Shown here piece by piece: positions 22,278 to 45,576 of a stretch of DNA of 64,000 bases (its first letter is position 1; every line of letters begins with the position of its first letter). The DNA comes from Candidatus Omnitrophota bacterium (GTDB taxonomy: Bacteria; Omnitrophota; Gorgyraeia; 2-01-FULL-45-10): the NCBI GenBank assembly GCA_041650935.1, contig JBAZKH010000002.1:64372-128371 (forward strand). Direction: 5' to 3'. Both the position numbers and the translations under genes were made by a program. The notes beneath the pieces were generated by a model. It did no database searches. It was not told the DNA's origin and saw only the letters and a program-made list of their open reading frames with translations.

Positions 22278-22405
22278 AGCCCTTCGACAAAAGCTCAGGA
22301 CTCTATCCTGAGCGAAGTCGAAGGATAGAGTTCACAAAGATTTCACATTTCTGTCACGTAAAATATATAATAACATAGTATAATTTAAACCAGAAGGAGG
22401 AGGAA

Positions 22406-23347: not shown

Positions 23348-23372
23348 ATGCATATGAAAGGATTGATAGGCC

Positions 23373-24263
23373 ATGGCTAAGCATAATAATTTCAAAGAGA
23401 AACTTATCCATGGCCTATTCTTCCTTAATGGGCTGCTGGTAGTAATAGTTCTAGTGGGCATATTTGTCTTATTGGTAACAAAATCCCTGCCGGCCTTCAA
23501 AGAAATACGTTTTAGCGAATTTCTGTTTAAGGCAAATTGGAATCCTACCGCTACCTTTGTGACGCCCTCATACGGAATAGGATCTATGCTTGTAAGCACG
23601 TTGATGGTATCTATAGGCGCCCTCGCTATCGCTATACCGCTTGGCATAGGCGCAGCCGCATATTTATCTGATGTGGCGAGCCAACGAGTCAGAGAAATAG
23701 CAAAGCCTATAATAGAGATATTGGCAGGCATACCTTCTGTGGTCATCGGTTTTCTTGGAATAGTATTAGTGGGGCCGGTTATCGCCAAGATATTCCATAT
23801 TTCAAACGGCCTGAATGCCCTTAATGGGTCAATTCTTCTTGCCGTTATGGCGTTGCCCACTATTATAAGTTTATCGGAAGACGCCCTGAATAGCGTCCCT
23901 AAATCGTTTCAAGAGGCATCACTTGCGCTGGGGGCCACACACTGGCAAACTCTGGTTAGGGTAAAAATACCGGCGGCGTTATCGGGAATAATCGCGGCCA
24001 GCATGCTGGGCATGGGCAGGGCCATAGGCGAGACCATGACTGTTTTAATGGCTACAGGTTGCGCCATCGCGATGCCGACAAGTTTTTTGCAATCCGTACA
24101 GACCATGACCGCGACTATAGCCATTGAACTGGGCGAAGTGCCCTATAATACAACCCATTATTACGCTCTTTTCGGCATAGGTCTTGTACTATTTATTATT
24201 ACTTTCATTGTAAATATGATTTCCGACATCGTATTGCATAAGTATCAGAGGGTCTTGAAATGA
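23373..24263 (+). CDS. pstC: Phosphate ABC transporter permease PstC
   Basis: 296 aa polytopic membrane protein with an EAA-like loop. Gene order pstS-C-A-B. Confidence 0.8.
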   Translation: MAKHNNFKEKLIHGLFFLNGLLVVIVLVGIFVLLVTKSLPAFKEIRFSEFLFKANWNPTATFVTPSYGIGSMLVSTLMVSIGALAIAIPLGIGAAAYLSDVASQRVREIAKPIIEILAGIPSVVIGFLGIVLVGPVIAKIFHISNGLNALNGSILLAVMALPTIISLSEDALNSVPKSFQEASLALGATHWQTLVRVKIPAALSGIIAASMLGMGRAIGETMTVLMATGCAIAMPTSFLQSVQTMTATIAIELGEVPYNTTHYYALFGIGLVLFIITFIVNMISDIVLHKYQRVLK

Positions 24264-25114
24264 AGGCCAGACAATTTAAAGAGATTTTTGGGTTTAATAT
24301 CCTAAGGCTATGTGTAGGCATTGTTATCGTCATTTTAATAGTTATTTTATACGATATAACAAGTAAGGGCATCGGGGTGATAAGCTGGAAGTTCCTTACA
24401 GCTATGCCCAAGAATGGAATGACAGAAGGCGGTATATTGCCCGCCATAGTAGGCACTTTTTTAGTAACCGTTATAACGGCGTTATTATCCATTCCTTTAG
24501 GGATGGGATGCGCTATTTATTTGAATGAATATGCCAGAGATAATAAAATTACTCGGCTGATCCGCATGTCTATACGTAATTTATCAGGCGTGCCTTCAAT
24601 AGTATATGGGTTATTCGGTGTAATATTGTTTGTCCAGATGATGAATTTAGGGACCTGTATCCTATCAGCAGGATTTACCCTCGGGCTTATGACCTTGCCA
24701 TGGACGATCACAGCAAGTGAAGAGGCATTAAAAAATGTGCCAAATTCATATAGAGAAGGGGCTCTTGCCTTGGGTGCCACAAAATGGCAGGCGATTAAGA
24801 CTAACGTACTGCCATATGCCATCCCCGGAATGTTAACCGGCACTATATTGGGCTTATCTCGCGCCGCCGGAGAGACGGCGCCCATCCTTTTTACCGGAGC
24901 GGCTTTTTCCCTCCCGTTTTTGCCGAAGTCTCTGTTCAGCCAATTTATGGCATTGCCATATCATCTTTATATAATGTCAACTCAGCATCATGCCGTGTCT
25001 AAGGTAAGACCTATTGCGTACGGTACGGCCTTAGTGCTTATCGCGCTCGTGTTTATAATGAACCTATGCGCCGTAATGGTGCGGTACCGTTTAAGAAAGA
25101 TTAAGATGGAGTAA
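24260..25114 (+). CDS. pstA: Phosphate ABC transporter permease PstA
   Basis: 284 aa. EAA-type loop [24 protein letters not shown]. Overlaps the pstC stop. Confidence 0.8.
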
Positions 25115-25118
25115 TCTA

Positions 25119-25877
25119 ATGGACGATATAAAGATAAGAGTCGGGAATTTTAATTTTTACTATGGCAAAACACACGTATTAAAGAATGTGTCGATGGATA
25201 TTGCCACAAATAAAGTAACCGGCATTATTGGCCCGTCAGGATGCGGTAAATCAACATTTTTGCGCAGCATAAACCGTATGAACGACACGATACTTGGCAC
25301 CAAGGCAGAGGGCCGCATGATAATAGACGGTAAGAATATTTATGATGAAGATATTGATGTTGTAGAGATAAGGCGCAAGGTTGGGATGGTGTTTCAAAAA
25401 TCAAACCCTTTTCCGAAGACAATATTTGATAACGTAGCCTATGGGCTCAGAATAAATGGAGTAAAGGATAAATACTATATACAGGAACGGGTGGAAAAAA
25501 GCCTGAAAGACGCGGCAATATGGGATGAGGTTAAGGATAGGTTGAACAAGAACGCATTTGAGCTATCCGGTGGTCAGCAGCAACGGCTTTGTATAGCAAG
25601 AGCATTGGCGGTGGAACCGGAGATAATTCTTATGGATGAGCCCGCTTCCGCGTTAGATCCTACCGCAACGCTGAAGATTGAAGAATTGATACAGCAGCTT
25701 AAGAAGAAATACACTATAATTATCGTAACCCATAATATGCAGCAGGCGGCCAGAATTTCTGACTTCACAGCGTTTTTTATGCTGGGCGAACTCATGGAGT
25801 ATAATATTACGAGCATCATGTTTACAAAACCCAGCAAAAAAATAACCGAAGACTATATAACGGGGAGGTTCGGATGA
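25119..25877 (+). CDS. pstB: Phosphate ABC transporter ATP-binding protein PstB
   Basis: 252 aa. Walker [10 protein letters not shown], signature LSGGQQQRL, Walker B ILMDEP. Confidence 0.9.
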
Positions 25878-26287
25878 TAAGGGTGATTTTGCTGATAGCT
25901 ATGTGTCTAACCTTATCTTCCTGCGAGACCGTGCGAAGTATCCAGAATGACGAGAGATTTAGTACCGTAGGCTCCTTTGAGCTAAATCCGGTTCAGCTGA
26001 ATAATTATTGGTATAATGGTCAGTCATACGAGTACAATGAATATGAGATAGAGATTACGGCCGGGCCAGGCCCGGCGAAAATTCAGTGGGCCGGGAGAAC
26101 AATAGGTACAACGCCTTTCGTCTATCGCTTCACGGGAATATTGGACAAGGATGACTACATAAAAGTCCGGGCCATCCCTATTGACGGAAATCTTCCGGCT
26201 CAGGAAGCGATGCTTCGTATAAGAAAAGAGCTTCCGAGAAAAATACATTTTGATCTACGAAATAAACAAGAGGCCAATGGTATATGA
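25874..26287 (+). CDS. Hypothetical lipoprotein
   Basis: Signal peptide with lipobox LSSC. 137 aa. Confidence 0.4.
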
Positions 26288-26691
26288 AGAAAGTGCTGTT
26301 TGTGTGTGTAGAAAACTCATGCAGAAGCCAGATGGCGGAAGGGTTCGCCAGACTTTCTGGTAAGGGCATATTCGAGCCATATAGCGCCGGGTCAAAGCCA
26401 TCCGGCAAGGTTGATCCTATGGCAATAGAGGTTATGAAAAAGGTAGATATAGATATATCATCACAGAAATCCAAGAGTTTTACCGACCTTGGCGTTAAAG
26501 AATTTGACATGGTTATCACATTAGGATGCGGTGATGTGTGCCCATTTGTTCCCGCGAAGGAACATATAGAATGGAAGGTAGACGATCCGAAAGGCAAAGA
26601 TATCGATTTTTTCAGGGTCGTTCGAGATCAAATCAAAGACCACGTTAAAAGATTAGCAGAATCTATTATTCATAACGAAAGAGGGAGATAA
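26284..26691 (+). CDS. Arsenate reductase / low-molecular-weight protein-tyrosine phosphatase family (ArsC, LMW-PTP type)
   Basis: N-terminal CVENSCRSQMAEG (CX5R P-loop) and downstream Cys residues. 135 aa. Confidence 0.65.
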   Translation: MKKVLFVCVENSCRSQMAEGFARLSGKGIFEPYSAGSKPSGKVDPMAIEVMKKVDIDISSQKSKSFTDLGVKEFDMVITLGCGDVCPFVPAKEHIEWKVDDPKGKDIDFFRVVRDQIKDHVKRLAESIIHNERGR

Positions 26692-26695
26692 AAAA

Positions 26696-27370
26696 ATGGA
26701 AAGACACTTCGACGATGAATTAAGAGATTTAAAACAAGATATTTTGAAAATGGGCGTCTTCGCCCAGGAGGCTATCCATAACTCTATAGAATCCTTAAAG
26801 AATCGCGATAGGGAGTTGGCGAAGAGTATTATAGAAAATGACACAAAAGTAGATAAACTCGAACTTGTCATTGATGAAAAATGCGTTGACTTAATCGCTC
26901 GACACCAGCCACTTGCAAAAGATCTGAGATTCATTACGGTCGGTATGAAACTAAATTCAGAACTCGAAAGGATTGCTGATATAGCGGTTGATATTGCGCA
27001 GCGGGTTCTCGAAATCGTAGATAAGCCGCTTTTAAAGCCTTTAGTCGATATTCCAAAATTGACGGTTGTTGCGCAAAGTATGATAAAAATGGCTGTCGAT
27101 TCATTCGTGAAAGGCGATGTTGAACTGGCCAAAAAAGCTATATTGTCCGACAGTGAAGCCGATAAGCTGCGCAATTTAATAACAAAGGAACTGATCGAAG
27201 ACTATATGGCTAAAGACGCCTCCACGGCTCCAAGAGCTGTTCAGCTTTTATTAATTGCTCGTTTTTTAGAAAGAATTTGCGATCATGCAACAAACATTGC
27301 TGAAGATGTTATTTATATGGTTCAGGCCGAAGTCGTTAAACATCATCCCGAGAAATTGAAGGAGGCGTAA
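26696..27370 (+). CDS. phoU: Phosphate transport system regulator PhoU
   Basis: 224 aa. Two PhoU repeats with conserved ERIADIAVDIA and ERICDHATNIAEDV motifs. Confidence 0.85.
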   Translation: MERHFDDELRDLKQDILKMGVFAQEAIHNSIESLKNRDRELAKSIIENDTKVDKLELVIDEKCVDLIARHQPLAKDLRFITVGMKLNSELERIADIAVDIAQRVLEIVDKPLLKPLVDIPKLTVVAQSMIKMAVDSFVKGDVELAKKAILSDSEADKLRNLITKELIEDYMAKDASTAPRAVQLLLIARFLERICDHATNIAEDVIYMVQAEVVKHHPEKLKEA

Positions 27371-27486
27371 AATAGTTTAAAATAAGATTTAAACTTGAGA
27401 TTTTCTTCAAAAGTAGTAAAATAAGCTCAAGATGAAAGAGCTAAGCCCGAACGAATTTTTGAGGAAACCGAAACAATAAAATAATT

Positions 27487-27520
27487 AAAACCCTCGTTTA
27501 TAATAACGAGGGTTTTTTCT
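27487..27520 (+). terminator. Rho-independent terminator downstream of phoU (AAAACCCTCGTT-TATAATA-ACGAGGGTTTTTTCTTT)
   Basis: Perfect 9-bp GC-containing stem followed by a T-run. Confidence 0.7.
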
Positions 27521-27552: not shown

Positions 27553-28089
27553 ATGGAATATCCCAATTTATATAAAGAACAAACGATTGAAGTGCTCGAT
27601 CTACCCTTTATGATATTGAAAGATGACAATGGTTATATGTGGGAATTCCCGCTGCGCTTAACGCCGCCTCCTTCAGGATGGATGATTGGAGATACGGTTG
27701 TTATTGAACCGGCGGGAGCTACGAGAAAGGGTGAAGATAAAGCTTATTATAAAGTAATCAACAAAACCAGAAAGCAAGAAGCAGGAGCTGGTCTGAATAA
27801 CCCATCTGACAGTATCAAAAAGAACTTAGAATTGAGTGATTTAAAAGAAGACTATGCTAATTATGATGCGGAGATGAGAATTACAAAGATAGAAGGTGAA
27901 TTATTTACGTTGGAAGATAGCTCGAAGTGGTATGTATATAATGTAGTACTCAATCCGGGTCTCTGGAAAGTCGGGGATATAGTGACAGTTGCTAGAGCTA
28001 TTGAAAAAAGCAAGAATAAGATTTGTAAAATGACGAACATTAAGACCGGAAAAGTTTTAATGGCAGTCCGGAAAAGGGCTGAAGAATGA
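27553..28089 (+). CDS. Hypothetical protein, first gene of packaging module 1
   Basis: 178 aa. Stop overlaps the start of the ParB-MTase gene (ATGA). Confidence 0.35.
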   Translation: MEYPNLYKEQTIEVLDLPFMILKDDNGYMWEFPLRLTPPPSGWMIGDTVVIEPAGATRKGEDKAYYKVINKTRKQEAGAGLNNPSDSIKKNLELSDLKEDYANYDAEMRITKIEGELFTLEDSSKWYVYNVVLNPGLWKVGDIVTVARAIEKSKNKICKMTNIKTGKVLMAVRKRAEE

Positions 28090-29345
28090 ATATTCGGAAA
28101 GTCCGTATCGATCAAATAAACCCCGCCGCTTACAACCCCCGCCTTGATTTAAAACCCGGTGATCCCGAATATGAAAAACTCAAGAAAAGCATTAAAACTT
28201 TCGGCTATGTCGAGCCCTTGGTATGGAATAGCCGGACAGGAAATCTTGTCGGGGGACATCAGCGCCTGAAGGTTCTTACTGAACAAGGTGATAAGGAAGT
28301 AGATGTCAGTGTCGTTGACCTTGACCCCGAAAAAGAAAAAGCCTTGAATCTGGCTTTAAATAAGATTCGCGGTGATTGGGATATTGAAAAACTCGGTGAG
28401 CTTCTGGATGAGCTCGGTAAAAGCCCCGACTTTGACGTAACTTTAACAGGCTTCGACATTCCAGAAATCAGCGAAATCCTCGACCAATTGGAAGAAGCCA
28501 AGGAAGATGATTTTGATTTTGAAAGCGCATTAAAAGATGAGGAAAAAGCCACGACCAAGCCGGGCGATATCATTGGGCTTGGTGAGCACAGGATTTTATG
28601 CGGCGACGCTTCAAAGCTGGAAGATCTGGCGAAACTTCTAGGAAACGAAATAGTCGGCCTGATTCACACAGACCCGCCCTATAATGTCGATTACTACGGA
28701 GGAGCTAGGCCTCATGATAAAGCTCGTCCTAAAAACTCAAAGCAGTGGAGGAGGATTTATAACGATAACATGAGCCAAGAAGATTATGAAAAATGGCTCA
28801 AAACTATTATTACTAACGCTTCCAAGTATCTTGCTCTCGGAGCGGCTGTTTACATCTGGAACGGCAGTCGGCAATTCGGCCCCATGTATGATATGCTTAC
28901 TGAGTTAAATTTTCATATAGGGTGCGTAATTACATGGGCAAAAGAACGATTCGCCATAGGCTACGGAGATTATAACCAGCAGACCGAATTCTGCCTATAC
29001 GGCTGGAAAGAAAAGGCAGGCGCTCATAAATGGTATGGCCCCAATAACGAATCAACTTTATGGCAAATCAAAAGAGATTCTACCGCCGGATATATCCATC
29101 CCACCCAAAAACCAGTTGCTTTAGCCCACAGAGCCATTAGGAATAGCTCAAAAAGAGGAGATATTGTGCTCGATCTATTCTTAGGTTCCGGCACAACCTT
29201 GATGGCCGCGGAGTCATTAAAAAGAAGGTGCTTTGGTACGGAAATCTCCCGCGCATATTGCGATGGAATCATTAAAAGGTATGTGAAATTTGCCGGTAAA
29301 GATAAAGTTTCTCAAGAAATTTTAAAAAAATACGAACTTTCATAA
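28086..29345 (+). CDS. ParB-like nuclease domain fused to a beta-class N6/N4 DNA methyltransferase (phage-type)
   Basis: 419 aa. N-terminal ParB/Srx-like region with GGHQRL. MTase motif IV DPPY (IHTDPPYNVDYYGG) precedes motif I FLGSGTT. Paralogue at 46371-47648. Confidence 0.75.
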   Translation: MNIRKVRIDQINPAAYNPRLDLKPGDPEYEKLKKSIKTFGYVEPLVWNSRTGNLVGGHQRLKVLTEQGDKEVDVSVVDLDPEKEKALNLALNKIRGDWDIEKLGELLDELGKSPDFDVTLTGFDIPEISEILDQLEEAKEDDFDFESALKDEEKATTKPGDIIGLGEHRILCGDASKLEDLAKLLGNEIVGLIHTDPPYNVDYYGGARPHDKARPKNSKQWRRIYNDNMSQEDYEKWLKTIITNASKYLALGAAVYIWNGSRQFGPMYDMLTELNFHIGCVITWAKERFAIGYGDYNQQTEFCLYGWKEKAGAHKWYGPNNESTLWQIKRDSTAGYIHPTQKPVALAHRAIRNSSKRGDIVLDLFLGSGTTLMAAESLKRRCFGTEISRAYCDGIIKRYVKFAGKDKVSQEILKKYELS

Positions 29346-29359
29346 GGAGGTAAAAATTT

Positions 29360-30034
29360 ATGCCGGATGAAGAACGCCCCGATAATATCGAAGAATCCCC
29401 AGCACTTCAAATATTAGCACAGATTCGAGACGGCACGCTAGATCCTAAAAAAATACCTTCAGAAATCCGCCAAGACTGTGTCGAACATCTGTGGCATGTG
29501 GAAGGCCAGCCTACAGCCGCAATAGCCCAGATCTTAAAAGTAAGTGATAAGACGATCAGGCGCGATAAGGATGATATCAGGGAAAGAAACGCCAAAAAAT
29601 TAACTCCTGAGGACAGGCTAAAACTTCTCAATGAATTCATGTCTAAATGGACCGCTTCGCAAGAGAATTTACAGAGATTGTCGCGCTCGCAAACGGGATC
29701 GATTCAGGAAAAATCGCAGGCCGGTTATTTTGCCATGAAAGCCATTAAAGAACAGATAGAGATTCTTCAAAGTTTAGGTATCTTTTATGAGAAGCCGGAG
29801 CAGTCAGAAATTGATATCCATGCTCACGAGGAAGAAGTTAACCCAGCTAAATTAAAGGAAGAATTAGCGCGCCTTGAAAAAATAGCGAATGACAAGGATA
29901 TCAATGATCCGGAAGTCGCAAAATTAATAGAGGACGTAAAGCGCAATATCGCAATCGCGGAGGCTAAAGAAGGATTAACTAAGTTGGAAGGAAAGATTAA
30001 TGATATAACTAAGAATAAGGATTCTCAGAAGTGA
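29360..30034 (+). CDS. HTH-containing small protein in the terminase small-subunit position (putative TerS)
   Basis: 224 aa. Central TAAIAQILKVSDKTIRRDKDDIRERNA helix-turn-helix. Lies immediately upstream of the large terminase and overlaps it. Paralogue at 47635-48312. Confidence 0.4.
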   Translation: MPDEERPDNIEESPALQILAQIRDGTLDPKKIPSEIRQDCVEHLWHVEGQPTAAIAQILKVSDKTIRRDKDDIRERNAKKLTPEDRLKLLNEFMSKWTASQENLQRLSRSQTGSIQEKSQAGYFAMKAIKEQIEILQSLGIFYEKPEQSEIDIHAHEEEVNPAKLKEELARLEKIANDKDINDPEVAKLIEDVKRNIAIAEAKEGLTKLEGKINDITKNKDSQK

Positions 30035-31728
30035 GTATCGGCATTGAATCAGAAAGACGTCTGCGTAAAACGATGGGCAAAAAATCCATCTTGGCCTTTG
30101 CCGATATTTATCTTTCTCATCATATAAAACTCAAAAGTCCAAGCCCTCCTTTTCACAAAGAAATATGCGATTTTCTCATAGACATGACTAACCATCGCGA
30201 TAAACGGCTGGCAATCGCGGCGCCACGCGGATACGCAAAAAGTACACTTGTAAATTTATTTTATGTATTGTGGTCTATTTGTTACGGAAAAGAACGATTT
30301 ATCTTAATTTTTTCAGCGACTGCCGATCAGGCGCAGTCGCAGTTAGCCACAGTGTCAAAAGAGCTTCAAACAAATATTCTCCTGCGAGATGATTTCGCGG
30401 ATGTATTTTCCACCAAAAGTCAGATTAAAGGAAAATTTACCCAAGATGAAATCATTACACCTAATGATATTAAAGTAAAAGCATATGGCGCAGGACAAGG
30501 TTCCCGGGGGATTAAGCATAATGAGCATAGGCCTACTTTAATTCTCCTCGATGATATCGATGGTGAAAAGAATACTTATAGCTCCAAAGCCAGAGAAAGT
30601 ATCTTCAGCTGGTTTAATCAAGTGGTCCTGTTTATGGGCGCGATTAACGTTGTTAATATGATCGCCATAGGAACACTTGTCCACCCCAAGTCACTATTGA
30701 CACGGCTGACCTATAAAGATGAATTCCTTAATTGGGATAAACTTATTTATAAGGCGATCGAAGAATTCTCCAAGCATGACGACTTGTGGCAAAAGTGGGA
30801 GAATATCGCGCGTAATCGCGGCGAGAGTTATGAAAGCGGAGTAGGCCTAGAAGCGGCAGATAGGTTCTTTCAGGATAATAAAGCCGATATGCTTAAAGAC
30901 ACAAAAGTCCTCTGGGAAGAGATGGAAGATTATTATACATTGATGAAAATCAAGACATTTGGAACTTCCTATAGCTTCGATTCCGAGAAACAAAATGATC
31001 CCACTAAAACTATGGATAGTCGTTACGACCCGGGAAAATTCTACTACTGGGATGACCAATTCCCCACGCTGGAAGAACTGCTCGCATCATTCGGCGGCGA
31101 CTATAGCTATGTAGGTGCCTGCGACCCGAGCGTTGGCGTAAAAAGTGGTCGCTCGGATCACTCGGGTATCATTATCCTTGCCCAGCATAAAGGCCGGCTT
31201 TATATCATCGATGCCGATATTATGGAACGTACTCAGGATGATCTGGTTCATACTATTGTTAATTACTGCAAAATCCGCCATCCAATGAACAACTTCATTA
31301 TCGAAGCTAATCTATTCCCACAGTTATTGCTTAATACTGTGCGTAATCACGCTTATAAGGAAAATGTTGTAGCCCCTTTTAAAGAAATCCGCAATACCGG
31401 GATTTCTAAAGAACAAAGAATCTTTGGAATGGAAACCTATCTTACAACAGGTACGGTTTTATTCTCCCGAAAGCATACAACATTGCTTGATCAACTTAAA
31501 TATTTTCCCAGAGACGATCATAACGATGGCCCGGACGCTTTAGAGATGGCCATAAGGGCAGCGGAAAGTCGAGTCAGTTTCTTGCCGATGGATGACGATG
31601 ATATAAGAGACAAACAGGGAAGACGTATTACTGATAGGGATTTTGGCCAAACAACTCCAGAAGAGGATGCGCGAGACGAGGACGACGAAGATGATGATCC
31701 AAATCGCAAGGGTGGCGTTAGCCCCTAA
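30031..31728 (+). CDS. Phage terminase large subunit (ATPase plus RNase-H-like nuclease) with an unusual acidic C-terminal tail
   Basis: 565 aa. Walker A AIAAPRGYAKST, Walker B LILLDDIDGE. C-terminal nuclease Asp residues (GACDPS, IIDADIME). Tail EEDARDEDDEDDDPNRKGG. Confidence 0.7.
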   Translation: MSIGIESERRLRKTMGKKSILAFADIYLSHHIKLKSPSPPFHKEICDFLIDMTNHRDKRLAIAAPRGYAKSTLVNLFYVLWSICYGKERFILIFSATADQAQSQLATVSKELQTNILLRDDFADVFSTKSQIKGKFTQDEIITPNDIKVKAYGAGQGSRGIKHNEHRPTLILLDDIDGEKNTYSSKARESIFSWFNQVVLFMGAINVVNMIAIGTLVHPKSLLTRLTYKDEFLNWDKLIYKAIEEFSKHDDLWQKWENIARNRGESYESGVGLEAADRFFQDNKADMLKDTKVLWEEMEDYYTLMKIKTFGTSYSFDSEKQNDPTKTMDSRYDPGKFYYWDDQFPTLEELLASFGGDYSYVGACDPSVGVKSGRSDHSGIIILAQHKGRLYIIDADIMERTQDDLVHTIVNYCKIRHPMNNFIIEANLFPQLLLNTVRNHAYKENVVAPFKEIRNTGISKEQRIFGMETYLTTGTVLFSRKHTTLLDQLKYFPRDDHNDGPDALEMAIRAAESRVSFLPMDDDDIRDKQGRRITDRDFGQTTPEEDARDEDDEDDDPNRKGGVSP

Positions 31729-31825
31729 AAAGAGGTCTTTTAAGGGCGGACATTTTGATTAAAATAGCGTGTCCGCCGAAAAGAGCGTATATTTTATAAC
31801 TATATATACATCAATTGGTTATGAT

Positions 31826-31880
31826 TTTATGTCCATCTGAAAAGTGGACAGAAATGGACATAAAAGTGGACATGTCCAAA
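31826..31880. promoter_or_regulatory. Cluster of TGGACA/TGTCCA repeats including the perfect palindrome TGGACATGTCCA. Candidate binding-site array.
   Basis: The sequence ATGTCCATCTGAAAAGTGGACAGAAATGGACATAAAAGTGGACATGTCCAAAT contains five copies of (T)GGACA or its complement within 55 bp. Confidence 0.35.
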
Positions 31881-32037
31881 TACCTCTCTGAAACTCGCCT
31901 CTCTGATTTTCGAAAATTCTTGTTTTCTGTAACTCATAACTGTATAATGGTGCTTAAGAATTAAGATGTAACATTAATGTTAGGGGATAACCCCCCTACC
32001 AAAAATCTCTCTCTCGTTTTAAGAAGAGAGAGGCATT

Positions 32038-32074
32038 AAGCTCTGATTGGTTCAGCCGATCAGAGCTTTTTCTT
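32038..32074 (+). terminator. Hairpin plus T-run (AAGCTCTGAT-TGGTTCAGCC-GATCAGAGCTTTTTCTTT)
   Basis: 10-bp perfect stem followed by TTTTTCTTT. A second hairpin, CTCTCTCG...GAGAGAG, lies just upstream at 32008-32033. Confidence 0.5.
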
Positions 32075-32346
32075 TGTCTTTACGTTTCAAAGACTTAGGG
32101 CATTTCTACCCGACGAGCCACGCAGCTTTTAACATTATTCTCTTTTAGCATTTAAAATTTATGCAGATCAGGCCAGCTAATCGCCGGAATAGCTCGATTC
32201 ATCTCTGATTTGGATTATTTTAGAGTGCGTGTAGTAAATGGTATTTTGGCGATATTATGCTGCTATTGATCGAACGGAATAGCCATTTACTAGGAATTGG
32301 CAGATACCTGGCTGGACTTATCTCTAGTAAATGACCTACTTGTGGG

Positions 32347-33942
32347 CTAATTTTGCTGGGACTTAAGGAGGTTATTCCAGATCTCTTGCTGCCTATTCCA
32401 GTCTAATTCCTGCGTTATATCGCGCAGCTTGTATTCAGGGATGCTGGACAACGCTTTGTTGTCAGACAGGAGTATCTCTTCCTGGATTCGTGGCGACATG
32501 AGGAGCATAGTCGCGATGTGGCAGATCCTGGCTGGACTTATGCCGATCCAACCAGCGATTTCTTTTAAAGTGCATCTTTTTTCATGCACGATTTGGTCTA
32601 TCTGATGAGCCAGGATCAGGTTCTGCCGTATGAGCGGTTCTTTGCTTATCGCGGCCTGCTGGCGATGATAAGGTATATGCTTTAATTCAGCCAGCTTTAG
32701 CGCGAATTGGTGGCTTTTATCGCCATCATGGAGCACTATCTCAAGAGTTCCGTTAACCGCGTCGTAATGCGCAACCTTGGCGATTGATTTAAGGACTGGT
32801 ATTTTTGCTTCCAGGGTTAGCGATTCCCAGACCTTGGCCTCAATCCGCGGATCTTTGCAGACTGTCCTTAAAAATTCCATAAACTTATTCTCAATAGCTT
32901 GAGCTGAAATGAGACGCGTAGGACAGCTCTTATAGCCACGCTTCTGGGCGTTCATACAAAGGTAGTAATGGTACTTATTAGTGCCTTTCTTGCTATATAT
33001 GTAGTACATAGTGCTATCGCAGGCCTTGCAGCGCAGGATACTGTTTAATAAGCCAGTATTCGTCACTACGCCAGCGACCTTGCGCTCACGACGGTTATTG
33101 GCCAGTATTTCTTGAGCCTTTTGGAATATATCGTCGGGTAATATGCGCTCTTGCTCGCCTTGATAAAGCTGCCCGGCATGATGAACTTTACCGATATAGA
33201 ATGGATTTTTAACTATCGATTGAATGCTCGTACTTTTAAACTTTACACCGCCGGATTTCCGGCCTTCCAGGGTAGCGTAGCTTTTTGTCATGCGACTCTT
33301 CTCATTTAGCGCTACTGCTACTGAAAGGAGAGATCGCTTCTCAAGATAAAGATCGAATATCTCTTTTACGATCTCGGCCTCTTTTGGATTTATGACAAGC
33401 TTTCGGTTTATCTTGTCGATATCATAGCCTAAAGGCGGCCTGCCACCGACCCACTTACCTCTCTTTTTGGAAGCAGCCATCTTGTCGCGTGTTCGTTCGC
33501 TTATAATTTCACGTTCGAACTGTGCAAAAGAGAGGAGTATATTTAAGGTAAGGCGCCCCATCGAGGTATTGGTGTTGAAAGCCTGTGTCACAGATACAAA
33601 TGTTACGTTGTTCTGTTCAAAGAACTCTAAGAGTTGAGTAAAATCAAGAAGCGAGCGTGATAATCGATCTACTTTATAAACCACGACACAATTAATGCCA
33701 CCTTTTTTAATGTTAGTCATGAGTTTTTGCAGGGCAGGTCGTTCGGTATTCGCTCCTGTATAGCCAGGATCATCGTAGCACTCAGACAACGTTATCCAGC
33801 CTTCCGACTTTTGGCTTTGGATATAGCTCTCTGCCGATTCGCGCTGGTTATCTAACGACGTAAATTCCTGCGCTAACCCTTCAGTAGTCGAGACGCGTGT
33901 ATATATGGCGCAATTAATCTTTTTCTTTTCTTGTTTTTCCAT
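32347..33942 (-). CDS. Large serine recombinase, intact (531 aa)
   Basis: N-terminal INCAIYTRVSTTEGLAQEFTSLDNQRE. VVYKVDRLSRS. Recombinase domain. Cys cluster CKACDSTMYYIYS...YYLC. Paralogue of 4178-6144. Confidence 0.85.
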   Translation of the reverse strand: MEKQEKKKINCAIYTRVSTTEGLAQEFTSLDNQRESAESYIQSQKSEGWITLSECYDDPGYTGANTERPALQKLMTNIKKGGINCVVVYKVDRLSRSLLDFTQLLEFFEQNNVTFVSVTQAFNTNTSMGRLTLNILLSFAQFEREIISERTRDKMAASKKRGKWVGGRPPLGYDIDKINRKLVINPKEAEIVKEIFDLYLEKRSLLSVAVALNEKSRMTKSYATLEGRKSGGVKFKSTSIQSIVKNPFYIGKVHHAGQLYQGEQERILPDDIFQKAQEILANNRRERKVAGVVTNTGLLNSILRCKACDSTMYYIYSKKGTNKYHYYLCMNAQKRGYKSCPTRLISAQAIENKFMEFLRTVCKDPRIEAKVWESLTLEAKIPVLKSIAKVAHYDAVNGTLEIVLHDGDKSHQFALKLAELKHIPYHRQQAAISKEPLIRQNLILAHQIDQIVHEKRCTLKEIAGWIGISPARICHIATMLLMSPRIQEEILLSDNKALSSIPEYKLRDITQELDWNRQQEIWNNLLKSQQN

Positions 33943-33950
33943 CAGACCTC

Positions 33951-34394
33951 CTATAAATTAAAGAACAGATATCCGTTCCAATGCGCTCCGGTTATCTCCT
34001 TAGCGATTGCGGATAATGTCTTATAAATCTTTCCGTTATACTCGAAACCTTTCTCAAGTACCTTTACTCGGTACTTAGCGTCATTATATTCCTTAGTAAT
34101 CACAGTTCCCGGAATAGGAAGACGCTTATCCTTGGTACTGGCTGGCAGACATGAAGGCGGCCTATCCGGCCTGAGAGCTTTGTTATTGATAGGATCATAC
34201 TCCTCAATAAGCGCCGAAAGTCGCCCATTGGCCTTGTCTGATAGACTGCCTTGCTCGCGCTCCTGTAGCCTATAAGCGATCTTACGCCAGAGATAGAGCC
34301 TATGGTTACTGGTGGCATCCTCGCCATAAAGCTCCTTATATCTCTCGAGAAGCTCTTCAACAGGCGCACTTTTAAGTGTCATTATCTCGCTCAT
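33951..34394 (-). CDS. DUF2924-family protein (recombinase partner)
   Basis: 147 aa. KRLPIPGTVITKEY...GFEYNGKIYKTLSAIAKEITGAHWNGYLFFNL, paralogous to 6152-6661. Confidence 0.65.
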   Translation of the reverse strand: MSEIMTLKSAPVEELLERYKELYGEDATSNHRLYLWRKIAYRLQEREQGSLSDKANGRLSALIEEYDPINNKALRPDRPPSCLPASTKDKRLPIPGTVITKEYNDAKYRVKVLEKGFEYNGKIYKTLSAIAKEITGAHWNGYLFFNL

Positions 34395-34573: not shown

Positions 34574-35185
34574 ATGGTTAAAGATGATATAGACATGACA
34601 GAAAGAACGAAGCCTTTAAAACTATTATCCAAAGAGATATTTTCAGGCGCTCCATTATATAGTACGGAGAAAATGGAAGAAGGCGCGGATGGTCTTCCCT
34701 TGATAAATATTAAGGATGTAGCCGAAGGAACTATTAGACCTGATACGTGTCGGCGGTTAATACCTGGGGATTTTAAGAACTTAGCTAGATATTTAGTATA
34801 TCCGAAAGATGTCGTTGTTACCTGCAGAGGTAGCCTATTGAAAGCCGCTGTTATTCCCGAGAACATCGGCAAGGCTCTAATAACATCAAACTTAATAGCC
34901 GTACGCCTAGACGAGTTAGTGTTACCAGAATTTTTGGCCATATATCTGAATATAAAGGAAGGCCAAAGAAAAATTCTTACGAGCGCAACTTCCGCTGATA
35001 CGCGCCTCGTGCTTACAGTTTCAAACATAGAAGAGTTTGAGATTCCTGTTTTGCCGATCAATTTACAGAAACAGATAATAGATTTAACAGCGTCTTCTGT
35101 TGAACAGTATAGATTGAGTTTGGATGCTGCAGTCACAAGGAAAAAAATTACCGAGCAGATTATAGAAGAACTAATAAAGAAATAG
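34574..35185 (+). CDS. hsdS: Type I restriction-modification specificity subunit, half-size (single target-recognition domain)
   Basis: 203 aa. One target-recognition domain followed by the conserved C-terminal helical region (LQKQIIDLTASSVEQYRLSLDAAV...). Lies directly upstream of hsdM. Confidence 0.55.
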   Translation: MVKDDIDMTERTKPLKLLSKEIFSGAPLYSTEKMEEGADGLPLINIKDVAEGTIRPDTCRRLIPGDFKNLARYLVYPKDVVVTCRGSLLKAAVIPENIGKALITSNLIAVRLDELVLPEFLAIYLNIKEGQRKILTSATSADTRLVLTVSNIEEFEIPVLPINLQKQIIDLTASSVEQYRLSLDAAVTRKKITEQIIEELIKK

Positions 35186-35196
35186 GGAGGATAAAA

Positions 35197-36717
35197 ATGT
35201 CAAAGCTAACAAATGGCGAACTCAATAATTATCTATGGGGTGCAGCAGATATTCTACGCGGCTCGATTGACTCATCCGATTATAAGAACTATATCTTCGG
35301 CTTTCTATTCCTTAAGCGTCTATCCGATGTTTTTGAGGATGAGGCGGAGAAAGTTATACAGAGGGAGCTTAAACGTGGCACATCTCAGGCTGAGGCCACA
35401 AAGATAGCCATGGAAGATCCAGACGAGCATCAATTCTTTGTACCGAAGCGCGCTCGCTGGTCCGAGATACGCAAGGTTTCACAGAATATAGGAGATGAGC
35501 TCAATAAGGCCTGTCATGCTCTCGAAGATAAGAATCAGATCCTCGAGGGCGTTCTTGCAGACATAGACTTTAATTCCAATAAGCTCGGCGATACAAAAAA
35601 CCGCGATTCGGTACTATCACGGCTTGTGAACCACTTCTCTAAAATCAGCCTTAAAAATACAGACCTCGAAGAGCCGGACATGTTGGGTAGGGCCTATGAA
35701 TACCTCATTGAGAAGTTCGCCGACGACGCCGGAAAAAAAGGCGGAGAGTTTTATACGCCGCGGAAAGTTGTCCAGCTGATCGTGGAGCTTCTAAAGCCCA
35801 AAGAAGGTATGCGTATTTGCGATCCCACCTGTGGTTCAGGCGGTATGCTTATCGAATGTGCCCATTATATAGAGAGGAAGAAGGGTAACCCAAGGAATAT
35901 TTCATTGTTCGGCCAGGAAAAGAATCTGGGTACCTGGGCCATATGCAAGATGAACATGCTCCTACATAACCTACCTGATGCAAGAATTGAGAAGGGCGAT
36001 ACAATACGGACTCCCAAACTTGTTAAGGAAGGCGAGTTAATGCTATTTGATAGAGTCATAGCAAACCCGCCATTCAGCTTAAAAGATTGGGGCATGGAAG
36101 CGGCTCAGAATGATGGTTTCGGAAGATTTCGTTATGGCATTCCTCCAAAGACCAAAGGAGATTATGCTTTCATGCAGCACATGATTGCTACAATTAACGA
36201 TAAAGGTATGGTTGGTGTGGTGATGCCTCACGGCGTGCTCTTTAGGGGCGCATCTGAAGGTAAGATCAGGAAAGTCCTGATAGAAGAAGACCGCTTTGAG
36301 ACGGTGATAGGATTAGCCCCGAATCTTTTCTACGGCACCCCCATTCCTGCAACAATTTTAATCTTTAATAGGAACAAACCAAAGGAGCGAAAAAACAAAA
36401 TTTTGTTTATTAATGCTTCAGGATGTTATGAGGGAGGCAAAAATCAGAATAAACTCAGAGCCGCAGATATCGAAAGAATCGTTAGTGCTTTTAATGGATA
36501 TGAGGATATAGAAAGATTTGCTAGGGTAGTTTCGCAGGATGAAATTAAGGAGAACGACTACAATCTTAATATTAGCCGCTACATTGATATGACGGAACCC
36601 GAACCCAGGATCGACGTCAGGGATGCGCTTAAGAAGTTACGCGATCTTGAGGCTCATCGCGATCAGGCTGAAAAAAAGATGGATGAATGCTTGAAGGGAT
36701 TAGGGTATGGGAAATAG
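35197..36717 (+). CDS. hsdM: Type I restriction-modification DNA methyltransferase subunit
   Basis: 506 aa. N-terminal HsdM_N region (LWGAADILRG...YIFGFLFLKRLSD). Motif I DPTCGSGGML, motif IV NPPF (VIANPPFSLKDW). Confidence 0.9.
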   Translation: MSKLTNGELNNYLWGAADILRGSIDSSDYKNYIFGFLFLKRLSDVFEDEAEKVIQRELKRGTSQAEATKIAMEDPDEHQFFVPKRARWSEIRKVSQNIGDELNKACHALEDKNQILEGVLADIDFNSNKLGDTKNRDSVLSRLVNHFSKISLKNTDLEEPDMLGRAYEYLIEKFADDAGKKGGEFYTPRKVVQLIVELLKPKEGMRICDPTCGSGGMLIECAHYIERKKGNPRNISLFGQEKNLGTWAICKMNMLLHNLPDARIEKGDTIRTPKLVKEGELMLFDRVIANPPFSLKDWGMEAAQNDGFGRFRYGIPPKTKGDYAFMQHMIATINDKGMVGVVMPHGVLFRGASEGKIRKVLIEEDRFETVIGLAPNLFYGTPIPATILIFNRNKPKERKNKILFINASGCYEGGKNQNKLRAADIERIVSAFNGYEDIERFARVVSQDEIKENDYNLNISRYIDMTEPEPRIDVRDALKKLRDLEAHRDQAEKKMDECLKGLGYGK

Positions 36718-37951
36718 TCACAAGCTACCTTCCGGATGGAAGCGTATTAAGCTCGGAGAGTATCTTACCGAAATTAGCGATCGCAATAACACAATCAAAG
36801 ATAACGGCGCGCCCGTTCTGAGTGTCACAAACAGACCCGGTTTTTCGATATCAGAGGAGCATTTTTACAAAAAAGTGTTTAGTAAGGATCTGTCTAATTA
36901 CAAAATTATTAAGAGAGGGCAGTTCGCCTATAACCCTTCAAGGGTCAATGTTGGCTCTATAGCACGCCTGAAGGAAGTCGATAAAGGGCTACTCAGTCCT
37001 ATGTATGTTACATTTGAGACCAAGATGGGTCTAAATGAATCATACCTGGATCATTGGATACTCAGTCCTCGCTTTAGAAGCCTTGTCAAGGCTGGCACGC
37101 AAGGTAGCGTAAGGAATTCATTAAATTTCTCTGCTCTTGCAGATTTCCCATTTTACCTTCCACCTGATGAAGAGCAAAAGAAGATAGTTGAAATCCTTGA
37201 TCGTATCGATCTTGTCATCGACCAAACCCAAGCAATTATTGATCAAACTCAAACTCTCAAGAAGGGTCTCATTCAGGAGTTATTCACGCGCGGGATTCCG
37301 AGTAAGAAAAAAAAGTTTATAAAAAGTGAACTTGGGGAAATTCCAGAAAAATGGCAAATTTTAAGGTTTGAAAATATCGTTGCTGACTATAGAAATGGAA
37401 TATATAAACATGAAAGACATTATGGAGCTGGAGTTCCTTGCATCAGAATGTATAACATATTTGATGGCAAGGTTAATACTCGAAATACACCATTAGTGAA
37501 AGCAAGCAAGAAAGAGTTGGTTGATTATGGTTTATTACCAGGGGATATATTAATTAATAGAGTAAATAGTTTAGACCAAGTAGGTAAGGCTGGTATTGTG
37601 AGAGAAGACTTAGGACCGGCTGTTTTTGAAAGCAAGAATATTAGGGTAAGAACAGACGGGTCAAAATGTCTTCCCGAGTATTTAATTACCTTTTTATCAT
37701 CTTCTCTATATTTAAGACAGATGAAACGTGGAATAAAAGCAGCTGTGCAACAGGCAACTATTAATCAAGACGATTTAAATCGAATAAAGATTAGCTTACC
37801 GCAAATAGAAGAGCAGCAGGTCATTATTAATCTTATGCAAAAGATTGATTTAGATATTCAAATTAACCAGACAACATATAATTTTTATCACGAAGTCAAA
37901 TCTGCAATTATGCAGGTCCTTTTGACTGGCGAGGTAAGAATTAAAAAATGA
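36707..37951 (+). CDS. hsdS: Type I restriction-modification specificity subunit, full-length (two target-recognition domains)
   Basis: 414 aa. Two target-recognition domains separated by a central conserved helix, and a C-terminal conserved helix. Overlaps the hsdM stop. Confidence 0.8.
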   Translation: MGNSHKLPSGWKRIKLGEYLTEISDRNNTIKDNGAPVLSVTNRPGFSISEEHFYKKVFSKDLSNYKIIKRGQFAYNPSRVNVGSIARLKEVDKGLLSPMYVTFETKMGLNESYLDHWILSPRFRSLVKAGTQGSVRNSLNFSALADFPFYLPPDEEQKKIVEILDRIDLVIDQTQAIIDQTQTLKKGLIQELFTRGIPSKKKKFIKSELGEIPEKWQILRFENIVADYRNGIYKHERHYGAGVPCIRMYNIFDGKVNTRNTPLVKASKKELVDYGLLPGDILINRVNSLDQVGKAGIVREDLGPAVFESKNIRVRTDGSKCLPEYLITFLSSSLYLRQMKRGIKAAVQQATINQDDLNRIKISLPQIEEQQVIINLMQKIDLDIQINQTTYNFYHEVKSAIMQVLLTGEVRIKK

Positions 37952-37961
37952 GAGGTGTGAA

Positions 37962-39032
37962 ATGAGCGACTATTCTAAATTATTCGAGGCAATATTAAAG
38001 GAGTCGAAAAACGCTAACGGAGCCTTTGGGCAGCTCCTTGACTCCTCAATAAACATACCGGAAGGGATCCGGTCTACGGCTAGTGATAGCCATAATCATT
38101 TGCGAGAATTTTTAGAAGGTGAGCATAAGCGAGATTCGACCTTTCCGCGGGTGTTATCCATAAAAGATGATGATTTCTTGGGAGGTTCTTTTGCAAGACA
38201 TACTAAGATATGGCCGCTGGATGATATAGATATATATTTCCCGTTGGATGGGTTTAATCTGTCTTATCTGCAAAACGGCTATAGGTTGCCATATACCGTT
38301 GTGTCAGATGGCGTGTTATCAAATAACCCATTGTTAGGTAGCCGCTGGACGATCGGAATTTATATATCGTCTTCTAAGTTAGTGACAGAATTTGCAGCAG
38401 TTCTTAAGCGGCACTATCCTGATACTAAAGTTAAACCCGATGGACAATCTGTTGCTATAAGGATGACCCAGGGTGAAACGTCCGATGAAGAAGGTTTGGG
38501 ATACGATATAGTTCCCTGCTTCTCATTGCAGCCGGATAACAAGACGGAAAGCTCTTTTTACCTTATACCCGATGGAAAAGATAACTGGACAAGGACTAAC
38601 CCTAGGATTGACACTGAGATAGCGGAAAAATTACACGTCGCTAACAATAAAACATATAGGAAAGTAGTTAAAATTGTGAAATATTGGAATAAAGAAAAGT
38701 TTCGTAGCATATTACCTTCCTATTATATTGAATTGGCTATAGCAAAGGGCTACATACAGAAAAATAAAGAGGGCGAGAATATAAACAGCCTTTCTTATGG
38801 TGTGGCAGTTGGATTCTGGGCTCTTAATGAGGCTATTAAACAGGGTGGTCAAGACTCATTTCTGCCATTGGCGCCCAAGGTTTACCCGGGACAATTAGAC
38901 GAAGGGCATAAGTTAATAATAGGTGCAGCCCACTCTGTTTCTCTTCAGGCTTGGGATGCTGAGAAAGCTGGCAATCAAGATCAAGCGATAAGTCACTGGA
39001 AGCGGATTTTTGGTGATACGTTTGGAGCGTAA
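37962..39032 (+). CDS. cGAS/DncV-like nucleotidyltransferase (CD-NTase-like). Candidate CBASS cyclase.
   Basis: 356 aa. GGSFARHTKIWPLDDIDIYF gives the GS-x11-[DE]h[DE]h motif. Third acidic residue at GYDIVPC. C-terminal VVKIVKYWNKEK resembles the OAS/cGAS KxW helix. RBS GAGAGGTG. Confidence 0.55.
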   Translation: MSDYSKLFEAILKESKNANGAFGQLLDSSINIPEGIRSTASDSHNHLREFLEGEHKRDSTFPRVLSIKDDDFLGGSFARHTKIWPLDDIDIYFPLDGFNLSYLQNGYRLPYTVVSDGVLSNNPLLGSRWTIGIYISSSKLVTEFAAVLKRHYPDTKVKPDGQSVAIRMTQGETSDEEGLGYDIVPCFSLQPDNKTESSFYLIPDGKDNWTRTNPRIDTEIAEKLHVANNKTYRKVVKIVKYWNKEKFRSILPSYYIELAIAKGYIQKNKEGENINSLSYGVAVGFWALNEAIKQGGQDSFLPLAPKVYPGQLDEGHKLIIGAAHSVSLQAWDAEKAGNQDQAISHWKRIFGDTFGA

Positions 39033-39042
39033 AGGATAAGCC

Positions 39043-45558: not shown

Positions 45559-45576
45559 AGAAGAGGGGATAAAAAT

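Follow-up and report, generated by a model that had tools for sequence, protein, structure and literature searches.

Tandem islands at a tRNA-Glu gene of a Candidatus Omnitrophota bacterium carry their own terminase: a candidate family of helper-dependent, satellite-like elements

Known phage satellites either steal the terminase of their helper or bring only a small terminase subunit (TerS), and capsid-forming phage-inducible chromosomal islands (cf-PICIs) bring a terminase together with capsid genes. The known phage-inducible chromosomal islands (PICIs) have a tyrosine integrase, a primase/rep module with an origin of replication, and only TerS or a cos site within ~7–18 kb, and virion-encapsidated integrative mobile elements (VEIMEs) and tycheposons have been reported with TerS only. 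Here we describe two genomic islands, A and B, that lie in tandem at the 3′ end of a tRNA-Glu gene in a 64,000-nucleotide stretch (the window) of contig JBAZKH010000002.1 from a Candidatus Omnitrophota bacterium. In each island, a large serine recombinase (LSR) with a DUF2924 protein is combined with a cargo region and a packaging operon that encodes a ParB_N/N6_N4 DNA methyltransferase (ParBMT), a TerS candidate, and a large terminase (TerL). As the first-pass annotation of this DNA had stated, capsid, portal, tail, lysis, and replication genes are missing; none of these families was found by Pfam and PHROG scans of any sizeable open reading frame (ORF) of the region. On balance, we think that the islands represent a new family of helper-dependent, satellite-like elements with a terminase of their own. 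We are confident of their anatomy and of the existence of the family; that they would be packaged with the aid of a helper is a more tentative proposal, close to an even call.

The two islands fill a block of low GC content (3890–55334; ~0.40) that is set between host flanks of ~0.50–0.54. Three tRNA genes lie upstream of the block, tRNA-Glu being the last, and its final six nucleotides (3884–3889) form the attL core, CTACCA. A 13-mer, GGGCTACCATATA, made up of the last 9 nt of tRNA-Glu and 4 further nt, occurs in exactly two copies in the window, at 3881–3893 and 55332–55344, and the GC content regains host level at the right-hand copy. A repeat of 13 nt is by itself not significant in 64 kb; its meaning comes from its position. 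The sequence at the boundary between A and B, CCCCCCTACCAAAAATC, has the CTACCA core in common with the outer ends. The three junctions read CATGGGG-CTACCA-TATATTCTGCC at the tRNA-Glu end, AACCCCC-CTACCA-AAAATCTCTCTC between A and B, and GCAAGGG-CTACCA-TATAGAAAAAAT at the right end. These are the junctions that would be expected if A (attP AACCCCC-CTACCA-TATATTC...) and B (attP GCAAGGG-CTACCA-AAAATCTC...) had each recombined at the tRNA-Glu end, and either order of arrival, A first or B first, is consistent with them. The unoccupied tRNA-Glu site is predicted to read CATGGGGCTACCATATAGAAAAAAT.

Within these boundaries the order of recombinase, cargo, and packaging operon occurs twice, with two LSR–DUF2924 pairs and two packaging operons. 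The first-pass annotation had singled out the interval 27553–34394 and proposed twin minimal elements. This interval proves to be the right end of island A and the left end of island B: an att-type junction (31996–32001) lies inside it, the recombinase that belongs to the first packaging operon is 26 kb upstream, and the islands measure 28.1 and 23.3 kb with large cargo. The islands were delimited anew because a second LSR–DUF2924 pair was found at 4570–6661. The broader description did stand: these are integrative elements in which a recombinase and a terminase of their own are retained and structural genes are missing. Nucleotide homology to relatives also ends where these boundaries predict: the nearest relative of A, locus L008 (82% identity), is homologous over 28086–31948, ending short of the core, and the nearest relative of B, L038 (77%), matches 46139–49923.

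The ends of the islands are conserved non-coding arms. The second and third cores are each preceded by 260 nt that are homologous by alignment, both to each other and to sequence 3′ of TerL in L002, L006, L008, L009, L018, L030, and L047. The aligned right arms hold five to seven GGACA/TGTCC motifs followed by a near-consensus outward promoter, and the core lies ~45–50 nt past this promoter within sequence that resembles a tRNA 3′ end (NNNACCA). The window has only two clusters of these motifs, of seven and six copies against a background of 0.19 per 150 nt; the seven lie in the non-coding region 31729–32346, which had been noted as full of repeats and is so. The first 80 nt that follow the first and second cores fold into a hairpin and then an intrinsic terminator (fold z = −7.8 and −4.9). 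The terminator in the left arm of A serves tRNA-Glu. This two-hairpin plan of the left end is also found in L009, and the 345-nt left arm of B is homologous to the left arms of L009. Rfam identified only the three tRNAs in the window, and the conserved arms match no known RNA family. The possibility that the hairpin directly before the core mimics a tRNA T-arm was rejected, as its fold z is only −1.1 and −1.7.

The GGACA array is favored as a pac site because it is the sole conserved repeat cluster and is located at the island edge, and it is our best guess for such a site. A separate observation concerns the outward promoter, the transcript of which is predicted to run across the att core to the next terminator (31920–32075; 55258–55385), this being the left-arm terminator of the neighboring island or the terminator in the tRNA trailer. 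The att core is thus inside a small predicted transcription unit, the 3′ half of which changes with the integration state.

The two packaging operons had been recognized from the outset as diverged copies of one three-gene module, and the ORFs are where they had been placed: the ParBMT proteins of A and B are 68.5% identical, the TerS-like proteins 36%, and the TerL proteins 39%. In an alignment of 24 TerL homologues, Lys70 of Walker A (K70), the Walker B residues D174/D175, and the nuclease residues D365, E425, and D499/D502 are invariant; a loss of nuclease residues, which the first-pass annotation had raised as an objection to its own proposal, did not occur. By their matches to PHROG 38 (terminase large subunit; Table 1), both large ORFs are, we are certain, genuine large terminases. 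Purifying selection acts on TerL, the TerS-like protein, and ParBMT alike (dN/dS 0.05–0.10 in five close pairs). Operon B is a mosaic with respect to L038, with TerS and TerL 87% identical and the adjoining ParBMT only 65% identical, which points to recombination inside the packaging operon. The poly-acidic tail that had been attributed to the TerL proteins of both copies is present in copy 1 as an extension of ~55 aa (31566–31728, TTPEEDAxDEDDE...) and is conserved in the A-type Omnitrophota subclade (L002, L004, L006, L009, L011, and L013), but the B-type TerL and all other TerLs examined are without it, copy 2 ending in ...RDYRLLSIPW.

The assignment of the gene between ParBMT and TerL as TerS is plausible. 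The gene overlaps TerL, and its product of ~220 aa would combine a helix-turn-helix (HTH) with a helical region that could oligomerize. An AlphaFold (AF2) model of TerS candidate A, built with 39 sequences, is all-helical with a mean pLDDT of 74 and has a confident N-terminal HTH followed by long helices. The TerS-like label of the first-pass annotation is thus borne out by position and by the N-terminal HTH, but it gains no support from Pfam or PHROG, which gave no match, from a profile search of PDB sequences, which was empty, or from a Foldseek search of the model against the PDB, which returned HTH-domain matches only (E ≥ 0.5). In hhalign comparisons with the Mu-gp27-like small terminases of the sister clade described below, the HTH alone aligned (probability 9.5%), and the comparison with Mu gp27 gave no supporting match. 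All 78 homologues of the candidate fall within the clade of loci that lack head genes. The exact TerS-like protein is listed in NCBI as WC522_03805, from Candidatus Omnitrophota bacterium.

Operon A opens with the gene for a conserved protein X, homologues of which occupy the same position in L002, L004, L006, L009, and L011; the protein is confined to island A and its subclade. Protein X was compared with the NusG-like protein that precedes TerL in sister Mu-like prophages, and this candidate relationship was dropped, as no similarity was found. The promoter and leader region of operon A is kept in L008 and L006. No primase, helicase-primase, or Rep family was found by Pfam in either island, and no remodeling gene for capsids was recognized in them.

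The recombinase and DUF2924 protein at 32347–34394 had been described as intact, and the Pfam domains and the YTRVST catalytic motif agree. LSR_A and LSR_B are 57% identical, and the two DUF2924 proteins are 58% identical. The C-terminal domain of LSR_A is encoded by a separate ORF, an arrangement also present in L049 and L039. Serine recombinases are not known to need supercoiling or host factors. DUF2924 has been interpreted as a RAMA-like DNA-binding domain (PMC11342252), and the protein is predicted to be a DNA-binding partner of the LSR. A conjugative or mobilizable element was also considered and rejected, as Pfam scans of the island ORFs detected no relaxase or type IV secretion system family.

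How widespread this arrangement is was examined with a TerL-profile scan of one genome per species, which yielded 80 loci in which ORFs were called and clustered all-against-all. The relatives are known as contigs of metagenome-assembled genomes (MAGs) with ≤10 kb of flank, and none is seen end to end. TerL_A has 317 homologues at E ≤ 1e-10, the named ones coming from Candidatus Omnitrophota and Planctomycetota MAGs. Exact-protein look-ups of TerL_A and TerS_A matched no contig, and that of ParBMT_A matched only a 3.9-kb Logan fragment. Three contexts that were read directly show this same four-gene operon with no portal or capsid gene after it.

The loci fall into two classes. In class 1 (~45 loci from Omnitrophota, Planctomycetota, Elusimicrobiota, and one MAG labeled Pseudomonadota), TerL is at least 38% identical to the window copies, the gene order is invariably ParBMT–TerS–TerL, and no conserved gene family is found within 10 kb on either side. 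TerL usually has an LSR as its neighbor, in one of three arrangements. An LSR of 600–730 aa is co-directional and directly 3′ of TerL in 11 of these loci, and DUF2924 and then LSR, co-directional, follow TerL in six. The convergent LSR–DUF2924 pair of the window recurs in L039 and L049, and L004 has a different LSR together with a Rep gene. Where class 1 loci are without an LSR after TerL, SIR2, Fic, metallo-β-lactamase, HNH, DUF347, and other genes are found there, never a portal or capsid gene. In class 2 (Nitrospinota and Firmicutes loci), TerL is 31–35% identical, and the genes after it are either Phage_portal, S78 protease, and Phage_capsid or an SPP1-type portal with Mu F. In a neighbor-joining tree of 125 TerLs, all those without head genes group as one clade. 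The first-pass annotation had allowed that relatives might show the modules embedded in complete prophages, and only the distant TerLs, at 31–35% identity, were found in complete head modules. The best TerL match in IMG/VR is 35–36% identical, and the ParBMT–TerS–TerL–LSR layout occurs in one of 80 viral contigs (L088, 7.6 kb).

Several observations bear on mobility. It had been suggested that a mobile module would be met at other insertion sites, and the ~45 head-less loci do lie at different sites with different cargo. Several MAGs have two or three copies, which have only a core block of ~7 kb in common. In MFD01916, L023 and L024 have just a 7.1-kb block from ParBMT to LSR in common (89% identity), and the upstream DNA differs. 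The L002 element, which is 67–73% identical at the nucleotide level to operon A, is considered to be at a different site because it adjoins glnS, lying directly upstream of it, and ends in GGGCAACCA, a tRNA-Gln-type end. A tandem array in L009 includes a 4.9-kb unit (11946–16910) that has both arm types, is bounded by the identical core, GAGGGACCCCAGTAAATTCTCTCTCC, and encodes neither recombinase nor terminase. This unit is apparently a non-autonomous mini-element, perhaps one mobilized in trans. When the three LSR arrangements are drawn as circles, the maps agree: TerL and LSR are neighbors, and the crossover maps to the 3′ end of the LSR gene or close to it. In five Planctomycetota loci with a co-directional LSR after TerL (L023, L024, L032, L019, and L033), within-genome nucleotide homology ends 115–170 nt before the LSR stop codon. 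The crossover in these loci may be inside the 3′ end of the LSR gene, in which case integration would alter the C terminus of the enzyme.

The terminase itself is related to those of Mu-like transposable phages. Against 50,697 cultured or deposited phage genomes, all TerL matches are below 32% identity (best ~30%, with E values down to 1e-66). The best are Mu-like transposable phages, namely Mannheimia 3927AP2, Bacillus BalMu-1, Burkholderia KS10, Faecalibacterium Mushu, Haemophilus SuMu, many Pseudomonas phages that are, to judge by their names, presumably D3112/MP42-like, and Ralstonia prophages. Annotated records around the phage match include a transposition protein, Gam, GemA, Mor, and Mu F. 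In the Firmicutes sister clade, TerL is accompanied by a Mu transposase C-terminal domain with rve, a MuB-like ATPase, GemA, Mor, Phage_Mu_Gp27, Mu F, and a tail sheath, and a NusG paralogue lies directly upstream of TerL; the islands are without one. By Mu-like ancestry we mean that of the SuMu/BalMu/Mushu/D3112 group and not of Mu itself. A side observation concerns loci of Nitrospinaceae MAGs (L056–L086; e.g. L073:7105–19228), where, in more than 15 species-level MAGs, a TerL–portal–S78 protease–HK97 capsid–tail-like cluster sits beside dnaA, at a single conserved position in the chromosome, with the same left neighbors each time (clusters c15, c10, c7, c6, and c4 = DnaA). It looks like a fixed-position head–tail locus, possibly a domesticated or gene transfer agent (GTA)-like one.

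Taken together, the parts suggest how such an island might work. The LSR, aided by DUF2924, would integrate and excise the island at the NCCA ends of tRNA genes. The leader terminator, an indirect hint of induction by a helper, would keep the packaging operon silent until read-through, triggered by a helper phage or another signal. The island terminase would then recognize an island-specific pac site and load island DNA into helper-phage procapsids. In a variant of this scheme, packaging would begin while the island is still integrated, and the LSR would free it from the linear DNA after injection. The variant is attractive because the islands are without a replicon and because the relatives of this TerL lineage include phages whose integrated genomes are packaged by headful; its basis is association, and we regard it as unlikely. 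A fuller statement of the idea, to which we give a similarly low chance, is that of phylum-spanning satellites with a terminase only, in which TerS and TerL of Mu-like descent would recognize GGACA while the island is integrated, a helper capsid would be filled by headful with the island and flanking DNA, and in the new cell the LSR could cut the island out of the linear DNA and insert it at a tRNA 3′ end.

Table 1. Features of the two islands and their surroundings (positions in the window)
Feature	Position	Strand	Evidence or remark
Host genes gltX, glnS, left of block	50-2475		
tRNA-Glu(CTC), integration target	3812..3889	+	ARAGORN, Rfam
Island A	3890-32001		28,112 bp
Left arm of island A	3890..4177		Hairpin, then intrinsic terminator 3895-3965, z = -7.75
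LSR_A C-terminal-domain ORF, 126 aa	4178..4558	-	39% identity to LSR_B residues 408-528, E 7e-29
LSR_A, large serine recombinase	4570..6144	-	Resolvase, Recombinase, Zn_ribbon_recom (Pfam); catalytic motif YTRKST
DUF2924, island A	6152..6661	-	PF11149, E 7e-36
Cargo of island A	6818..27370	+	Pfam, PADLOC
Promoter TTGAGA-16-TAAAAT, short leader, and intrinsic terminator (27487-27516) gating operon A	27395..27516	+	
Protein X, 178 aa, conserved, first gene of operon A	27553..28089	+	No Pfam or PHROG match
ParB_N/N6_N4 DNA methyltransferase, A	28086..29345	+	Pfam; PHROG 498, E 8e-131; dN/dS 0.05
TerS candidate, A	29360..30034	+	Position and architecture only (N-terminal HTH, long helices); dN/dS 0.10
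TerL, A, with acidic C-terminal extension	30031..31728	+	PHROG 38, E 6e-90; dN/dS 0.085
Right arm of island A	31729..31995	+	GGACA/TGTCC array 31748-31877, 7 copies; outward promoter TTGTTT-17-TATAAT 31920-31948
A/B junction core CTACCA (P arm of A + P′ arm of B)	31996..32001		
Island B	32002-55334		23,333 bp
Left arm of island B	32002..32346		Hairpin, terminator 32038-32068, TAGTAAATG repeats
LSR_B, C-terminal domain fused	32347..33942	-	Resolvase, Recombinase, Zn_ribbon_recom (Pfam); catalytic motif YTRVST, intact
DUF2924, island B	33951..34394	-	PF11149, E 1.5e-40
Cargo 1 of island B	34574..46140	+	Pfam, PADLOC
Leader of operon B, intrinsic terminator 46289-46324, predicted structure occluding the ribosome-binding site	46141..46370	+	z = -5.0; conserved with L038
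ParB_N/N6_N4 DNA methyltransferase, B	46371..47648	+	Pfam
TerS candidate, B	47635..48312	+	36% identical to A copy, 87% to L038 copy
TerL, B	48272..49873	+	PHROG 38, E 4e-104; Terminase_6C; dN/dS 0.054
Cargo 2 of island B, 3′ of TerL	49943..54882		Pfam; still low GC
Right arm of island B	55085..55334	+	GGACA/TGTCC array 55094-55214, 6 copies; outward promoter TTGATA-17-TATAAT 55258-55286
attR core CTACCA, then original tRNA-Glu trailer and terminator	55335..55340		Terminator fold z = -7.6
Host genes saccharopine dehydrogenase, nikR, hypA, gcvTHP, right of block	from 55588		

The cargo of the islands (Table 1) is variable and consists for the most part of anti-phage defense systems. Island A carries a type III restriction-modification (RM) system, an LmuB-like SMC ATPase, a C92 peptidase, an HTH-SocA antitoxin-like protein, and a LOG-like protein, followed by a phosphate set (16090–27370) of two two-component systems, a porin, pstSCAB-phoU, and a low-molecular-weight phosphatase. 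A complete phosphate-acquisition set is a metabolic trait that travels on the same vehicle as defense genes. The first cargo region of island B encodes a type I RM system (hsdM/S/R), a cyclase and a 4TM effector of a cyclic oligonucleotide-based antiphage signaling system (CBASS), YgjP, DUF1883-TIR, DUF2188, a non-specific endonuclease, and a 187-aa protein; the CBASS pair of oligonucleotide cyclase and 4TM effector (37962–39864) is nested between hsdS and hsdR of the type I RM operon. The second region comprises an HTH_3 regulator on the minus strand (49943–50185), a PDZ lipoprotein, a 638-aa protein, a NucS-like nuclease, and a 257-aa protein, and relatives likewise hold defense genes 3′ of TerL.

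The DNA just upstream of island A has a history of its own. Between tRNA-Gln and tRNA-Glu lies an insert of ~1.07 kb (2649–3762) that is bounded by a 42-nt repeat (2648–2689 and 3721–3762, 93% identical). It carries a nucleotidyltransferase-like ORF (2849–3262) and tRNA-Leu, the last 22 nt of which recur exactly at 3705–3726, and it is probably the scar of another tRNA-targeting element.

Of the explanations that compete with a helper-dependent satellite, the one that survives best is that the terminase has been co-opted, e.g. for anti-phage interference by competing for or cutting phage DNA or procapsids, and that the islands move in other ways, such as by transformation or mobilization through generalized transduction. 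Defense systems do dominate the cargo, and the islands have no replicon and hence few copies to package. There is also precedent, as satellites are known to use terminase subunits for interference (PMC9618062). No PADLOC model matches the TerS-like protein or TerL, however, and both the ATPase and the nuclease halves of TerL are strictly conserved. Across long evolutionary distances the operon has stayed tightly linked to the LSR and the conserved cis-acting arms, which fits transfer better, and we consider co-option improbable.

A second possibility is that the islands drive lateral transduction or GTA-like transfer, with the terminase starting at the right arm and packaging adjacent chromosome or random DNA into capsids encoded elsewhere. 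Two features would suit such a role: operon and outward promoter lie at the edge of the island and face host DNA, and the TerL lineage is related to phages in which integrated DNA is packaged. However, these hosts have no known capsid locus, and the multiple copies, different sites, and tandem arrays are hallmarks of selfish mobility. We consider this possibility somewhat less probable than co-option.

It is very unlikely that 27553–34394 is itself the integrative unit and that the second module copy is another such unit that has lost its recombinase. TerL adjoins an LSR in many related loci, and the Planctomycetota copies have the block ParBMT–TerS–TerL–LSR in common. In the window, however, a CTACCA core with right-end and left-end motifs separates TerL_A from LSR_B, the homology to L008 stops at 31948, before the recombinase, and the second LSR–DUF2924 pair beside the tRNA gene gives each module a recombinase of its own; low GC content and end motifs place the cargo inside the islands. 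The link between terminase and recombinase that was proposed from this interval is real in that TerL and LSR are neighbors across the family, but the particular pair that looked linked belongs to two different islands.

Even less probable is that the whole 51 kb forms one composite island with a duplication inside it. The exact 13-nt repeat is indeed found only at the outer ends, but the core gene sets are only 36–68% identical and have their nearest relatives in different genomes (L008 for A and L038 for B), both a right and a left arm, each complete, flank the CTACCA of the internal junction, and tandem arrays of the same kind occur in L009. Last, that the modules are what is left of two temperate phages after deletion of structural genes is scarcely credible: the ParBMT–TerS–TerL order commonly opens phage late operons, and distant TerL relatives (31–35% identity) precede portal, protease, and capsid genes, but plain prophage decay is largely refuted because the head-less layout recurs in ~45 loci of three phyla with one monophyletic TerL clade and purifying selection (dN/dS 0.05–0.10), SIR2, Fic, HNH, and other genes and never a portal follow TerL, all ORFs are intact with no pseudogenes, and the non-coding sequence of both arms is conserved.

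Several points weigh against a family of helper-dependent satellites as we propose it. Excision, encapsidation, and the helper phage are steps that we infer from sequence, and the assignment of TerS is unproven. Instead of a pac site, the GGACA array could be the operator of the promoter next to it, or DUF2924 or the LSR could bind there. Large serine integrases do not usually target tRNA genes or reuse hybrid sites in tandem, and a size of 23–28 kb without a replicon is atypical of known satellites. The neighbor-joining tree on which the single TerL clade is seen carries no support values. The TerL of E. coli Mu itself, gp28, has no BLASTP similarity to the island TerL, and the same TerL family serves HK97-type head modules in Nitrospinota; the Mu-like link is therefore an association and not a rule, these Nitrospinota modules being non-Mu. 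Exact-pattern searches of a metagenome contig collection for the unoccupied attB (TGGGGCTACCATATAGAAAAAAT) and for junctions carrying the left arm of B (CTACCAAAAATCTCTCTCGTTTTAAG) gave 0 matches each, results that are uninformative, as the collection is without this genome and the source contig itself was not recovered.

If the islands are helper-dependent satellites, they would combine a complete terminase with the lack of a capsid or replicon, which is not described in the literature searched. The first-pass annotation knew of no described satellite family with this gene combination, and we likewise found no description of a head-less island with LSR, ParBMT, TerS, and TerL in that literature. 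To our knowledge, almost no mobile-element biology is known for Omnitrophota, Planctomycetota, and Elusimicrobiota. If packaged while integrated, as in the fuller idea above, the islands would represent a new route of horizontal transfer and a main vehicle of defense systems in Omnitrophota and Planctomycetota. More generally, they may be a main route by which defense genes (RM types I and III, CBASS, TIR, SIR2, and Lamassu-like) and phosphate genes move in these lineages. The conserved arms also offer concrete cis-elements, namely the array of GGACA motifs, an outward promoter whose transcript would cross the att core, and a late operon gated by a terminator. LSRs with tRNA 3′-end targets and well-delimited att arms are also candidate tools for genome engineering.

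GTAs have a head–tail cluster at a fixed locus and no integrase or att sites, whereas the islands have no structural genes and carry an LSR and att cores, and their relatives lie at varied sites. In prophage WO of Wolbachia, a DUF2924 gene lies directly upstream of a large serine recombinase, as in the islands (PMC10299305). Unlike the islands, WO is a full tailed prophage that has modules for head, baseplate, and tail. LSR islands of the staphylococcal cassette chromosome mec (SCCmec) type and tycheposons resemble the islands in that cargo sits at the 3′ end of a conserved gene or tRNA with short repeats and in tandem arrays. SCC elements, however, use ccrAB pairs that target rlmH and have no packaging genes, whereas each island has a single LSR with DUF2924 and a tRNA target, and tycheposons have mostly tyrosine recombinases and replication genes.

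Mu-like phages (Mushu, BalMu-1, SuMu, KS10, and D3112-like) provide the nearest cultured or sister relatives of TerL and package integrated genomes. The islands differ from them in having site-specific serine recombination and no MuA/MuB, Gam, Mor, or Mu-type head genes, and the TerL identity is ~30%. The phage-inducible chromosomal island-like element (PLE) of Vibrio cholerae is described as a satellite integrated by a large serine recombinase (PMC6002521, PMC9638900). An LSR integrase is thus common to PLEs and the islands, but PLEs have RepA/ori and no terminase, use superintegron-repeat sites, and occur only in Vibrio, whereas the islands are without Rep and carry unrelated cargo.

The cf-PICIs encode their own large terminase, as the islands do, but genes for capsid, portal, protease, and connector proteins come with it, and none of these was found in the islands or their relatives. 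With PICIs, including those of Staphylococcus aureus (SaPIs), with VEIMEs, and with PICI-like tycheposons, the islands share att repeats, phage-derived packaging genes, defense cargo, the lack of capsid, tail, and lysis genes, and a presumed dependence on a helper. It is to satellites of this PICI/SaPI kind that the islands are most similar in their presumed mode of action. Among the features of a PICI, they have the site-specific integrase with att repeats and no structural or lysis genes; a replication module of their own is missing. They differ from known PICIs in being 23–28 kb in size with no replicon, in using an LSR with DUF2924, and in carrying a pair of TerS-like and TerL proteins together with a ParB-methylase.

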